From a virus, in IMG/VR virus record IMGVR_UViG_3300017917_002116, positions 51,421 to 115,420 of that record: a DNA stretch of 64,000 bases; one strand, 5' to 3'. The position numbers and the translations under genes are program-made. Below are positions 58,977-63,647 of this stretch, in pieces. The notes below the pieces were generated by a model. That model searched no databases. It was not told the origin of the DNA and worked only from the letters and a program-made list of their open reading frames with translations. Positions within the stretch are counted from its first letter, which is position 1. The number at the start of each line of letters is the position of its first letter.

Positions 58977-59416
58977 CTCATTGGTATGGAACGACCAGTG
59001 AAAAAATTCTAAGCTGGCGCGAATTAAGAAGGCAGTCTGCTCAACAGACATTTGAAGAAGCCATCAAGACTATAACGGATTGGTGGACTTATGCACCCTG
59101 GGTCAAAAAGACCATAGACCCATATAAACCAGAGACCTGGCCCACACCCTGGGACATGATTAATCTAGGTCACTTTTGCCGAAGCGCCTTGGCGTTAGGG
59201 CAAGCATACACAATATGGATGTTATTTCCTAACTCTGAATGTGAGCTCTGGTTGATTAATAATAAATCAGAACAGGACGTTCATCTTGTCGTTGTTATTG
59301 ATAAACAACTGGTATTAAACTATAATATGGGATACGTAGAACGTCTGGAAGACTTGGACTATGAGCTTTTAGCAGTAACAACAAAAAATGATCTAGATCA
59401 TATTAAGTTGTATTAA
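58961..59416 (+). CDS. Transglutaminase/cysteine-protease-like protein
   Basis: WPTPW...FC...ALG..YT, H.VVV.D..VLN pattern of BTLCP-like folds. Confidence 0.5.
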   Translation: MEHDLTHWYGTTSEKILSWRELRRQSAQQTFEEAIKTITDWWTYAPWVKKTIDPYKPETWPTPWDMINLGHFCRSALALGQAYTIWMLFPNSECELWLINNKSEQDVHLVVVIDKQLVLNYNMGYVERLEDLDYELLAVTTKNDLDHIKLY

Positions 59417-59452: not shown

Positions 59453-61825
59453 ATGAAAAAAGGAAAAGAACATATGTCTACCACGGCCAAAACCATTAAT
59501 GTACTAAAGAGATCTGGTAATTACGAACCTCTAGCGGTAGAAAAATGGCAGGCACAGGTGGCAAAAGTATGCAGTGGTATTGCTGATGTAAGTCAGTCAA
59601 TGATTGAAATTAAGGCTCAGCCACATTTTTATGATGGTACTAGTACCAGAGAAATCGATGAGATTACACTTAGGGCCATTGTCGATCTGATCGACATTGA
59701 AGCTAATCCAGAAATAGGTAATATCAACTACCAATACGTAGCAGGCAAACAACGCCTAAGTATGTTGCGTAAAGACGTTTATGGTACCTACGATCCACCA
59801 CACCTATATGAGATCGTTAAGAAGAATGTGGGCGTGGGCCTGTATACTCCAGAACTTCTTGAATGGTATTCAGAAGAAGACTGGAACAAGATGAATGATC
59901 TATTGGATCATAGCAAAGATGAATTATATAGTTATGCAGCCATTGAACAACTGATTGAAAAATATTTGGTTCGCAATCGTAGCACTAAAGAAATCTATGA
60001 AACACCACAAGTGCGATACATAGTTGCCGCGGCCACCGTGTTCCATAAAGAAGAGCCCAATAGTGCTCGTATGCGTTATATAAAGGAATATTACAATGCA
60101 GCTTCAGACGGTCTATTTACTCTCGCTACTCCTGTTCTTGCTGGGCTTGGCACTCCCACTAAGCAGTTCAGTAGTTGTGTACTCATACGCAGTGATGATG
60201 ATCTTGACAGCATTTTTGCTAGTGGCGAAATGATGGCCAAGTATGCTAGCAAACGTGCTGGCATAGGTTTAGAAATTGGACGACTACGTCCTTTGGGCAG
60301 TCCCATTAGGGGCGGTGAAATAATGCACACAGGCATGATCCCATTCCTTAAAAAATGGTTTGGTGACCTGCGTAGTTGTAGCCAAGGAGGTATTCGCAAT
60401 GCGTCAGCTACTGTCTTTTATCCAATATGGCATCATCAATTTGACGACCTTATTGTACTCAAGAACAACCAGGGAACAGAAGAAACAAGAGTAAGACACA
60501 TGGACTACGGTGTAGTGCTGTCTGCTTTCTTCTTTCGCCGTTTTAAGAACAAAGAAAATATTACTTTCTTTGATCCCAATGAAGTACCAGATTTATACGA
60601 AGCATTTTATTCAAACACAGAAAAGTTTGAAGAACTTTATGTAAAATACGAAAAGACTCCGGGTCTACGTAAAAAGACCATGAGTGCTGAAGAAGTCTTC
60701 AAGAGTGGTATCTTAAAGGAGCGCACTGATACAGGTAGAATTTATCTTGTATTCATTGATAACGTCATGAACCAAGGTCCATTTGATCCTGAATACCACA
60801 CCATCTATCAGTCTAATTTATGTTGTGAGATTCTTTTACCTACTAAGCCTTTTAAGCGTCTTGATGATAGTGACGGCCGCATTGCCCTTTGCACCTTGGG
60901 CAGCATCAACTGGGGTGCGTTCCGTAATCCTGAAGACATGCGCCGCGCTTGCCGCATTCTACAGCGTAGCCTATGTAATATATTGGATTATCAAGACTTT
61001 CTAAGTATTCAATCTAAGTTAAGTAATGACGAAATTCAGCCACTGGGTATTGGTGTTACTAACCTTGCCTACTGGCATGCAAAGAAAGGATTAAAATATG
61101 GTGATGCAGATAGTCTTGCAGAAGTTAAGTCGTGGATGGAGCACCAGGCGTACTACCTTACAGAAGCCACAGTTGAACTTGCCAAAGAAAGAGGCAAGTG
61201 CAAAGACTCTGACAAAACTTGGTATGGACAAGGAATCTTTCCCTGGGAAAGACGAGCCAAAGGTGTAAATGAACTTGCCAACTTCAACCCAGAATTAGAC
61301 TGGGAACCATTACGTAAGGAGATGAAGCTTCATGGAGTTCGAAATGCAACGCTTATGGCCATTGCTCCTGTTGAATCTAGTTCTGTGGTTATTAACAGCA
61401 CGAATGGCATTGAAATGCCTATGTCGCTTATCAGCACTAAGGAAAGCAAGGCAGGATCTTTTACACAAGTTGTCCCAGAATATCACAAGCTAAAGAACAA
61501 ATATCAATTAATGTGGGATCAGAAAGATTGTGTGGGTTACATTAAGACTGCGGCGGTATTGGCAGCTTATGTTGATCAGAGTATCAGTACCAATACATTC
61601 TATAATCCAGCATACTTCCTGGATAGGAAAGTACCTACCACATTGATAGCAAAGAATTTAATGTTAGCACACCATTGGGGCATCAAGACCTTCTATTATA
61701 GTTTGATTAATAAGGCAGGTGCCAAGGCAGCTCAAGAAGAGCAACAGCCAGACAATGTTATAAGTTTGAATTTCAATCAACCGATGGAAATGGATGACGA
61801 AGACTGCGAAGCATGTAAATTATAA
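59453..61825 (+). CDS. nrdA: Ribonucleotide reductase class Ia alpha subunit
   Basis: ATP cone (VLKRSG..EP), QFSSC, SQGG.R, SNLCCEI, C-terminal CEACKL. Start may be 59474. Confidence 0.97.
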   Translation: MKKGKEHMSTTAKTINVLKRSGNYEPLAVEKWQAQVAKVCSGIADVSQSMIEIKAQPHFYDGTSTREIDEITLRAIVDLIDIEANPEIGNINYQYVAGKQRLSMLRKDVYGTYDPPHLYEIVKKNVGVGLYTPELLEWYSEEDWNKMNDLLDHSKDELYSYAAIEQLIEKYLVRNRSTKEIYETPQVRYIVAAATVFHKEEPNSARMRYIKEYYNAASDGLFTLATPVLAGLGTPTKQFSSCVLIRSDDDLDSIFASGEMMAKYASKRAGIGLEIGRLRPLGSPIRGGEIMHTGMIPFLKKWFGDLRSCSQGGIRNASATVFYPIWHHQFDDLIVLKNNQGTEETRVRHMDYGVVLSAFFFRRFKNKENITFFDPNEVPDLYEAFYSNTEKFEELYVKYEKTPGLRKKTMSAEEVFKSGILKERTDTGRIYLVFIDNVMNQGPFDPEYHTIYQSNLCCEILLPTKPFKRLDDSDGRIALCTLGSINWGAFRNPEDMRRACRILQRSLCNILDYQDFLSIQSKLSNDEIQPLGIGVTNLAYWHAKKGLKYGDADSLAEVKSWMEHQAYYLTEATVELAKERGKCKDSDKTWYGQGIFPWERRAKGVNELANFNPELDWEPLRKEMKLHGVRNATLMAIAPVESSSVVINSTNGIEMPMSLISTKESKAGSFTQVVPEYHKLKNKYQLMWDQKDCVGYIKTAAVLAAYVDQSISTNTFYNPAYFLDRKVPTTLIAKNLMLAHHWGIKTFYYSLINKAGAKAAQEEQQPDNVISLNFNQPMEMDDEDCEACKL

Positions 61826-61833
61826 GGTAACAA

Positions 61834-63039
61834 ATGAAAAAGAGAAATTACTCCAAAGAAGCAGTACAGCGTCTACAAGGAAGTTTACAAATAGAACATA
61901 CTCTTGCTAAAAGAGGTGCACATAAACTAAGAGAATTATTGACCAATGAGCCATTCATCAATACACTAGGTGCCTACAACGGACAGATGGCTGTACAACA
62001 TGCCAAGGCAGGATTAAAAGCAATTTATCTAAGTGGCTGGCAAGTTGCCGCCGCAAACAACACGGCACTACAAACATATCCAGATCAAAGTTTGTATCCA
62101 GTTAACAGTGTGCCACAGGTAGTTAGGGGTATCAATAATGCCTTCCGTCGTGCGGATCAAATTGATTACAGCGAAGGCAAAACTGATACAGATTATTTCT
62201 TGCCTATTGTTGCTGATGCAGAAGCAGGCTTTGGTGGCGCACTAAACGCATACGAGTTAATGATGGCCATGATTGAAGCTGGTGCTGCCGGCGTACATTT
62301 TGAAGATCAGTTGAGTAGTGAAAAGAAATGCGGACACCTGGGTGGTAAGGTTTTAATTCCTACTGGTCAAGCAATACGTAATTTAACTGCCGCACGATTA
62401 GCGGCTGATGTTGCGGGTATTGACACAGTTATCATGGCTCGCACTGACGCAGAAAGTGCAACATTAATCACCAGTGACCACGACCCATTAGACAAGGATT
62501 TTATTATCAATGAACGCACTGAAGAAGGCTTTTACAAATTCCGTAATGGCATCGAGGCATGTATTCGAAGAGGCCTTGCTTATGCCCCTTACGCTGATCT
62601 CCTTTGGTTCGAGACTAGCACACCTGATATCGCACAGGCTAAAAAGTTTGCCGATGCTATACATGCTGAGTTTCCGGATCAAATGCTTGCTTATAATTGT
62701 AGCCCTAGTTTTAATTGGCGTAAGTTTTTAAGTGAAGATGAATGTGAAACATTCCAACGCGAACTAGGTGAATTAGGTTACAAATTCCAGTTCATTACAC
62801 TAGCAGGCTTCCACTCAGTTAACCTTGCTACATTTGAACTAGCAGAAGCATATAGGGCACGTGGTATGGCAGGTTACAGTGAAATGCAACAACGCGAGTT
62901 TGCCGCACAAGAACGTGGCTTCACAACAGTTAAACATCAGCGTGAAGTGGGAGTTGGTTATTTTGATTTAATTAGTGAAGCAGTTGGTGCTACCAGTACA
63001 GTGGCTAACAAACACAGCACCGAGGCTGATCAATTCTAA
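61834..63039 (+). CDS. aceA: Isocitrate lyase
   Basis: [84 protein letters not shown]. Confidence 0.97.
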
Positions 63040-63647
63040 TGACTGACGAGGAGGCATACCGATTAAATCCGCGAGATAATATCTGGTATAATAAACTCTA
63101 TCTAGCAGAAAGATTAAATTATATAGCAGGGTATGGTCCGATCCCCTATGATGGTGAATTTGTTATTAAACCTACTATTAATTTAACTGGCTGCGGTATT
63201 GGTGCTAAGATTGGTTCTTTTAAAAGAAATGATCCAGTGCCGCCCGATTGTTTTTGGAGTGAAGCCTTTAAGGGTAGACATATTACTATAGATTATAGTA
63301 AAATTAACGGGCAATGGCAGCAGGGCCATACATTTGAAGGATTTCGAGACGACCCTGCTGATCTACTAAAATTCAGTTTGTGGCGTCGTGTTGATTATTC
63401 ATATCAATTACCTGGTGTTTTTAATGACATAAAAGCAGACAAATTAAATATAGAAATAATAGGCGATCGAATAATTGAAGTGCACTTAAGACATAATACA
63501 GATCCTATACAATATGATTGGTTTATTCCTATATGGTCAGACGATCAAGTATGCCCTGACGATTGCATAAGAATAGATGATCAAGAAGATCATCCAGGGA
63601 GATTGGGATTTTTTGTGAGAAAAGAATATGAGCAACAAACAATATAA
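63039..63647 (+). CDS. ATP-grasp-like protein
   Basis: FVIKP..NL.G.G.GA, FWSE...G.H..IDY, NIE.I...IIEVHLR. Confidence 0.6.
   Translation: MTDEEAYRLNPRDNIWYNKLYLAERLNYIAGYGPIPYDGEFVIKPTINLTGCGIGAKIGSFKRNDPVPPDCFWSEAFKGRHITIDYSKINGQWQQGHTFEGFRDDPADLLKFSLWRRVDYSYQLPGVFNDIKADKLNIEIIGDRIIEVHLRHNTDPIQYDWFIPIWSDDQVCPDDCIRIDDQEDHPGRLGFFVRKEYEQQTI

Follow-up and report, generated by a model that had tools for sequence, protein, structure and literature searches.

Why should a large phage carry a central-carbon enzyme between the two genes of its ribonucleotide reductase? The question is raised by the virus record IMGVR_UViG_3300017917_002116 (115,420 bp), of which the final 64 kb were analysed and are hereafter called the window. 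The contig terminates in a run of four plus-strand open reading frames (ORFs) arranged head to tail, namely nrdA, aceA, orf202 and nrdB, and aceA is the gene for isocitrate lyase (ICL). CheckV estimated a completeness of 32% at 115,420 bp, and the record is therefore a piece of a very large phage. We consider it probable (roughly 70%) that aceA encodes an intact, virus-only short form of isocitrate lyase, and that it is an old, strongly selected auxiliary metabolic gene (AMG) of large uncultured phages that sits in a cargo slot.

The 401-aa product of aceA, judged from its sequence, is almost certainly a complete and active isocitrate lyase. It scored 685.8 bits against the NCBIfam equivalog model NF011645 (cut-off 562; profile positions 27-428 of 430) and 541.9 bits against TIGR01346 (cut-off 275.9), matched the Pfam family ICL (PF00463) with an E value of 2.4e-101 and could be aligned over its full length with bacterial ICLs of solved structure (E 1e-170). 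All 21 active-site positions that were checked, comprising the KKCGH catalytic loop with the active-site Cys, the Mg2+ ligands and the glyoxylate- and succinate-binding residues, are present in the window protein and are invariant across 150 viral and 45 bacterial sequences. The site residues of Mycobacterium tuberculosis (Mtb) ICL1 we take to be Y89, S91, G92, W93, D108, D153, E155, H180, E182, R228, E285, N313, S315, S317, T347 and L348, and this numbering was transferred via a 428-aa Mycobacterium ICL (L097). Over the whole length, the phage enzyme is about 60-70% identical to bacterial AceA/ICL1 (6LRP, 7CMX, Mtb 1F61/1F8I and E. coli 1IGW), with which it also shares the C-terminal tail, and of the 123 columns in which the 45 bacterial sequences do not vary it retains 122.

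Scanning IMG/VR with AceA recovered 199 viral contigs with close relatives; the counts given below for the closest copies refer to the best 80 of these 199. The 80 proteins are 88-94% identical to the window AceA and represent a first viral clade. A second, more diverse viral clade comprises 98 contigs around Phage C48C1 (OQ984149, Kyanoviridae, 156 kb). Short-form viral aceA thus occurs on about 300 IMG/VR contigs (199 + 98), and such AceA fall into more than 120 separate clusters at 90% identity in a metagenomic protein database, on contigs of up to several hundred kb. The AceA of the best bacterial species genomes is only 70-71% identical. A quick maximum-likelihood tree of 87 sequences gave support of 99 for clade 1, 100 for clade 2 and 96 for the split between viral and bacterial sequences; its bacterial set consisted of 43 sequences, mostly from Pseudomonadota and Actinomycetota and partly picked by similarity. 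The preliminary description of this DNA had proposed a phylogeny as the means of telling a phage clade from recent host capture, and the viral copies were indeed placed apart from the 43 bacterial ones. A single origin of viral AceA is compatible with this tree, which falls short of proving it.

The preliminary description had also called isocitrate lyase an uncommon phage AMG. That holds for cultured phages: no PHROG family covers AceA, and C48C1 is the sole genuine cultured or complete phage record with aceA in the phage collection examined. It does not hold for the large phages of metagenomes, considering the contigs counted above and the 98 huge phages with this enzyme given in a recent preprint (bioRxiv 10.1101/2025.02.27.640493). 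The AceA of C48C1 is 64% identical to that of the window and has the same MKKR-Y start, and it is annotated as 'hypothetical protein'; its gene lies in a different neighbourhood and does not adjoin nrd genes.

Three features set the window enzyme apart from its bacterial counterparts, namely the absence of their first 16-39 residues, an Ala in place of Asp98 and the lack of an accompanying aceB or aceK. The profile match starts at position 27 of NF011645, phage residue 4 pairs with residues 24-36 of the solved chains, and the sampled bacterial AceA mostly have 16-39 extra N-terminal residues that carry a conserved W..NPRW.GI.R motif. The short N-terminus is real and not an annotation artefact, as only one codon separates an in-frame TAA (61828-61830) from the aceA ATG. 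The same start position is common to 71 of the 80 clade-1 copies and 65 of the 70 clade-2 copies. The sole exception among the 123 bacterially invariant columns is the Asp at Mtb-like position 98 (AceA residue 74 of the window, 62053-62055), which is Asp in 45/45 bacterial sequences, Ala in 80/80 copies of viral clade 1, and Ser or Ala in 69/70 copies of clade 2. The replacement goes together with the loss of the N-terminal segment; that a contact between the two was lost is a guess. The complete AceA with its KKCGH motif and the missing N-terminal segment of cellular AceA had both been recognised beforehand, and both were borne out.

By the location test for a phage AMG, aceA lies in viral DNA between phage genes, recurs in related viruses and is under purifying selection. 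Between the window aceA and the 80 viral copies, the proportion of synonymous differences (pS) was 0.56-0.82, which is saturated, and that of nonsynonymous differences (pN) was 0.05-0.11, corresponding to a dN/dS of about 0.03-0.08. NrdA of the same loci gave a pN of 0.10-0.24, a range from which mis-framed nrdA codon comparisons (pN about 0.71) were left out. Saturated synonymous sites combined with low pN indicate a long residence of aceA in these phages, under tighter constraint than that on their reductase. The saturation also rules out a recent phage-to-phage transfer behind AceA identities of about 90% as against NrdA identities of 70%. The codon usage of aceA fits the contig (relative synonymous codon usage, r 0.82; median of long ORFs 0.77), and there is no step in guanine-cytosine (GC) content at the gene.

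Why the gene sits where it does is best approached from both sides of the locus. Among the 80 closest aceA copies are 28 that lack any nrd gene within 5 kb; 23 of them are followed, within three genes downstream, by a fatty-acid-desaturase-like gene, which defines a second recurrent neighbourhood (for example L065:8709-9443, 244 aa, PF00487 E 2e-13; also L006, L026, L030, L056, L062 and L072). Seven further loci have the order nrdA-nrdB-aceA, and five are cut by contig ends beside an nrd gene. For the reverse view, the 79 NrdA proteins nearest to that of the window (85-91% identity) were taken, and in 61 of these loci nrdB could be seen as well. There, nrdA and nrdB are adjacent in 22 and enclose other cargo without aceA in 34, and aceA lies near nrd in five (inside the interval in three and after nrdB in two). 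The cargo includes class II aldolase (17 loci), Fe/Mn superoxide dismutase (8), the ATP-grasp protein (8), IscU (6), an IscA-type Fe-S carrier (4), a DAO-type flavoenzyme (3), methyltransferases, a GNAT protein and small unknown ORFs, and glutaredoxin is encoded downstream of nrdB in most loci. AceA and NrdA pairwise distances were uncorrelated over 29 distinct loci (Mantel r -0.04, p 0.56); old exchange of cargo may account for this, and so may distances that have levelled off under strong constraint. Most simply, the stretch between nrdA and nrdB can be read as a variable, well-expressed slot for cargo, of which aceA is a frequent occupant.

Across the loci L271-L349 and L003-L082, the interval appears as a swap site with more than 15 cargo families (for example L324:3009-3659, L299:10020-10571, L057:974-1693 and L345:3252-4439). 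Several of these families have iron or redox helper functions from which the di-iron reductase could profit, which is an observation without a statistic. Homing endonucleases were considered as the driver of slot mobility and rejected, none being present among the larger annotated cargo clusters.

Three points weigh against the reading of aceA as old virus-only cargo. First, 40 of the 80 closest copies are in fact enclosed by nrdA and nrdB (0-2 small ORFs precede aceA and 0-6 follow it), and so large a share inside the reductase operon may mean that co-expression brings some benefit. Second, the small, similarity-picked bacterial sample may leave room for an unsampled bacterial sister group or donor. 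Third, a 91%-identical short-form AceA (P0086) is encoded on a 697,313-bp JGI contig, which would come from a cell or else from a phage of exceptional size; scanning metagenomes with P0086 did not bring this contig up.

Four other explanations were weighed. In the one that survives best, AceA would be one of several helpers of the di-iron reductase gathered in the operon: bypassing the NADH-producing half of the tricarboxylic acid (TCA) cycle would lower the demand on iron-rich respiratory complexes and generate less reactive oxygen. The superoxide dismutase, IscU and IscA-type genes found in the slot and the glutaredoxin gene after nrdB agree with this idea, as does the reported link of glyoxylate shunt induction with iron limitation and oxidative stress (PMC11069385; PMC6779741). 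We nevertheless regard it as unlikely, since the slot also takes cargo that has no obvious connection with iron or redox (class II aldolase with its 17 loci, ATP-grasp proteins, methyltransferases, GNAT proteins and small ORFs) and since the 28 aceA copies without a nearby nrd gene are outside the reductase operon.

Somewhat less credible still is a purposeful placement of aceA in the ribonucleotide reductase operon, by which isocitrate carbon would be directed to C4 acids, glyoxylate and glycine at the peak of deoxynucleotide (dNTP) synthesis, as the preliminary description had suggested. The 40 copies between nrdA and nrdB and the seven just after nrdB, the glutaredoxin gene that follows, the tight coupling of the genes in the window and a serine hydroxymethyltransferase gene downstream of aceA in one relative (described below) would all suit such a tie. 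The tie is called into question by the desaturase neighbourhood of most nrd-free copies, by the 22 empty slots and the 34 with unrelated cargo in the reverse view, by the absent correlation of AceA and NrdA distances, and by the lack of a consistent glyoxylate-to-glycine enzyme, and the proposed link of aceA position with dNTP demand was not upheld.

A shifted job of the short-form enzyme, such as methylisocitrate lyase, action on another 2-substituted malate or succinate substrate, or the reverse reaction, is highly improbable. Substrate shifts are common in the phosphoenolpyruvate (PEP) mutase/ICL superfamily, weaker matches to PrpB models exist, the N-terminal segment is missing from every viral copy and the bacterially invariant Asp98 from almost every one, and such a shift would explain a stand-alone ICL without malate synthase in near-complete relatives. 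All 21 ICL active-site positions are nonetheless unchanged, the succinate-binding ones included, and the ICL equivalog cut-off is passed with a wide margin whereas the PrpB models remain far below theirs (110 vs 354 bits). Finally, an assembly chimera, host contamination or very recent host capture, for which AceA being a typical cellular gene without a PHROG family and the bacterial origin of several 'phage' database records with aceA might speak, is refuted for practical purposes by the same junctions in dozens of independent assemblies, the phage-like codon usage without a GC step, the saturated synonymous sites between phage copies, and the failure to find a bacterial genome above 71% identity while the viral copies group by themselves.

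Those records deserve mention in their own right. Four Salmonella or Escherichia 'phage' or phage-collection entries (OR850939.1, OR845679.1, AGRM01000005.1 and AFYI01000007.1) carry an ordinary enterobacterial aceA. The order aceB-aceA-aceK in AGRM01000005 identifies it as bacterial DNA, which is no evidence for a phage AMG. Another mislabelled entry appears to be L083 (CAYGKA010000139.1), a 2-kb contig of a metagenome-assembled genome labelled uncultured Flavobacteriaceae: its AceA is nearly identical to that of Hwanghaeella grinnelliae (Alphaproteobacteria), and the L083 genome drew the same phylum sample as Hwanghaeella, so that the taxonomic label or the binning looks wrong.

The features of the locus are listed in Table 1.

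Table 1. Features at the 3' end of the 64-kb window (positions are those of the window)
Feature	Coordinates	Strand	Basis
Candidate promoter, sigma-70-like	59298..59326	+	TTGATA-17-TATAAT, 11/12 consensus match; 127 nt upstream of nrdA
nrdA, class Ia ribonucleotide reductase alpha subunit, 790 aa	59453..61825	+	NF006578, Ribonuc_red_lgC, phrog_84
aceA, viral short-form isocitrate lyase, 401 aa, KKCGH at 164-168	61834..63039	+	NF011645, PF00463
orf202, minimal ATP-grasp-fold protein, 202 aa	63039..63647	+	phrog_3577; AlphaFold2 model; fold matches
nrdB, class Ia ribonucleotide reductase beta subunit, first 124 codons	63628..63999	+	NF006576, PF00268, phrog_86

The junctions were read directly. 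The nrdA TAA is followed by 8 nt (GGTAACAA) and then by the aceA ATG, the aceA stop and the orf202 start overlap by 1 nt in TAATG, and the nrdB ATG lies 20 nt inside the 3' end of orf202. The earlier statement that AceA begins 8 nt after nrdA and is linked to nrdB through an ATP-grasp ORF is thereby confirmed. No convincing plus-strand terminator was found between the four genes. From the gaps of 8, -1 and -20 nt and this lack of a terminator we infer, in line with what had been proposed, that the four genes are very probably co-transcribed and translationally coupled. The exact order nrdA-aceA-orf202-nrdB recurs in seven independently assembled contigs (L003, L041, L043, L044, L055, L058 and L307, the last being another stretch of the contig of L055), and the chimera that had been named as a possible objection was not borne out. 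In GenBank phages, the 4.5-kb region found no megablast match.

The candidate promoter is the top-scoring sigma-70-like site of the region and sits in the sole sizeable non-coding gap preceding the four-gene run; the total count of such sites in the region equals chance expectation, and the candidate is a consensus match only. NrdA reached 827 bits against NF006578 (cut-off 813) and matched Pfam Ribonuc_red_lgC with an E value of 1.5e-110. Its gene has two in-frame ATG codons, at 59453 and 59468, which are five codons apart, and relatives align from residue 13-15 on; the true start may be the second ATG or later. The NrdB fragment matched NF006576 with an E value of 1.2e-27 and is partial, hence under the cut-off, the window ending where the contig ends.

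The function of orf202 was approached through its fold. Profile searches against Pfam, NCBIfam and PDB sequences gave no match, and its family, phrog_3577 (E 1.5e-23), bears a function-less label; 48 homologues were found. The AlphaFold2 model, built with 30 homologues as alignment, reached a predicted local distance difference test (pLDDT) score of 93.8. In Foldseek it gave 49 matches at E <= 0.001, all those listed being ATP-grasp enzymes (PylC at E 4e-6), and VIA-align matched 185-196 of the 202 residues to PurK, PurD, L-amino-acid ligases and D-Ala-D-Ala ligase (Ddl) with Z scores of 10-12. The matches cover the central and C-terminal parts of ATP-grasp enzymes, not the N-terminal domain. 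The 'ATP-grasp' label given beforehand is accordingly right at the level of the fold.

As in PurK, PurD, PylC, L-amino-acid ligases and D-Ala-D-Ala ligase, a (K/R)P strand is followed in orf202 by a glycine-rich loop, and its N-I-E...E-V-H-L-R resembles the E...E-x-N-x-R metal site of ATP-grasp enzymes, with His for the usual Asn. The invariant residues (N137, E139, E147, H149, R151 and (K/R)44-P45) appear by eye to fit the (K/R)P strand, glycine-rich loop and acidic metal-site motifs. Unlike ATP-grasp enzymes, the protein has only 202 aa and lacks the N-terminal substrate domain. Going by the predicted structure, it is probably an ATP-dependent carboxylate-amine ligase. Only 7 of the 80 loci with aceA also contain orf202, which occupies the slot without aceA in L325; homologues in T4-like Synechococcus phages (33% identity) are located among hypothetical genes and not near aceA or nrd. 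It is cargo independent of aceA.

The fate of glyoxylate depends on which partner enzymes accompany the lyase. Malate synthase (PF01274) had been reported as missing from the window, and it is in fact absent from the whole 115-kb contig and from four aceA-bearing relatives, two of which are 100% and 97% complete; positive controls of the profile search gave matches. AceK (PF06315), the search for which had been recommended together with that for aceB, is absent from the same five records. In these records there is also no class V aminotransferase (PF00266), and 2-hydroxyacid dehydrogenase (PF02826) gave weak partial matches only. Serine hydroxymethyltransferase (PF00464) was found in one of the five, the relative G004, where a full-length gene (G004:C1:1387-2505, locus L352, on the 167-kb contig of L080; E 4e-143) is found on the strand of aceA, about 2.7 kb downstream of it. 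Since no partner enzymes are encoded, the phage AceA relies on host enzymes for glyoxylate. Malate synthase is present in all five bacterial genomes that own the nearest AceA. In Acinetobacter, aceA can matter where malate synthase is dispensable (PMC6779741).

Under the preferred reading of aceA as old viral cargo, the course of events would be as follows. aceA would most likely be transcribed with the ribonucleotide reductase genes from an early-type promoter upstream of nrdA. In the infected cell, the phage AceA would split host isocitrate into succinate and glyoxylate, so that the two TCA-cycle steps that release CO2 and yield NAD(P)H are skipped. Disposal of the glyoxylate would fall to the host, either to its malate synthase or to a different sink, for instance transamination to glycine. 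The position of aceA in the reductase operon would then represent the use of a variable, well-expressed slot and no dedicated partnership with the reductase.

As to the host, the nearest cultured NrdA proteins are those of Xanthomonas, Ralstonia and Stenotrophomonas phages (55-60% identity), and no tRNA genes were found in the window. A cyanobacterial host, suggested by the Synechococcus-phage homologues of orf202 and by the placement of C48C1 in Kyanoviridae, was considered and rejected, as psbA (PF00124) is absent from the contig and the four relatives.

Phage isocitrate lyases have already been published, in 2013, 2017 and 2025. The genes aceA and aceB were found in Pacific Ocean viromes (PMC4053976), a marine T4-like viral genome of 179 kb was described with an aceBA operon (PMC5332604), and 98 isocitrate lyases were listed for 98 huge phages from habitats including freshwater (bioRxiv 10.1101/2025.02.27.640493). 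In the same preprint, malate synthase occurs only in phages of marine, soil and plant-related habitats, from which it follows that the other ICL phages described there, freshwater ones included, carry ICL alone. The published enzymes are the same enzyme as an AMG of large T4-like or huge phages, and the window phage, with ICL alone, resembles the ICL huge phages of the preprint that are not from marine, soil or plant-related habitats. It differs from the marine T4-like genome (PMC5332604), where aceB adjoins aceA. The short N-terminus, the selection regime, the nrdA-nrdB site and the desaturase context are not described in the available portions of the three reports. The Asp98 replacement in both viral clades, the selection figures, the list of slot cargo and the ATP-grasp fold of orf202 are new detail.

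No new kind of biology is implied, since phage isocitrate lyases are already in the literature. A bolder interpretation, which we hold to be doubtful, is that the virus-only short form acts as a stand-alone valve without malate synthase and protects or feeds nucleotide synthesis in an unconventional manner. By one route, it would spare iron and limit reactive oxygen for the di-iron reductase beside superoxide dismutase, IscU, IscA and glutaredoxin; by another, its glyoxylate would be converted into glycine and one-carbon units. If this were true, the missing N-terminal segment and the replaced Asp98 would be adaptive, for instance as an escape from host regulation or through a changed oligomer. 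What the preferred reading conveys is that a central-carbon enzyme is fixed in very widespread large uncultured phages and is under stronger constraint than their own ribonucleotide reductase, which argues that these phages rewire the host TCA cycle at isocitrate without the second enzyme of the shunt. The nrdA-nrdB interval is a hot spot for the swapping of metabolic and redox genes, and this will be useful for annotation and for finding further auxiliary genes.

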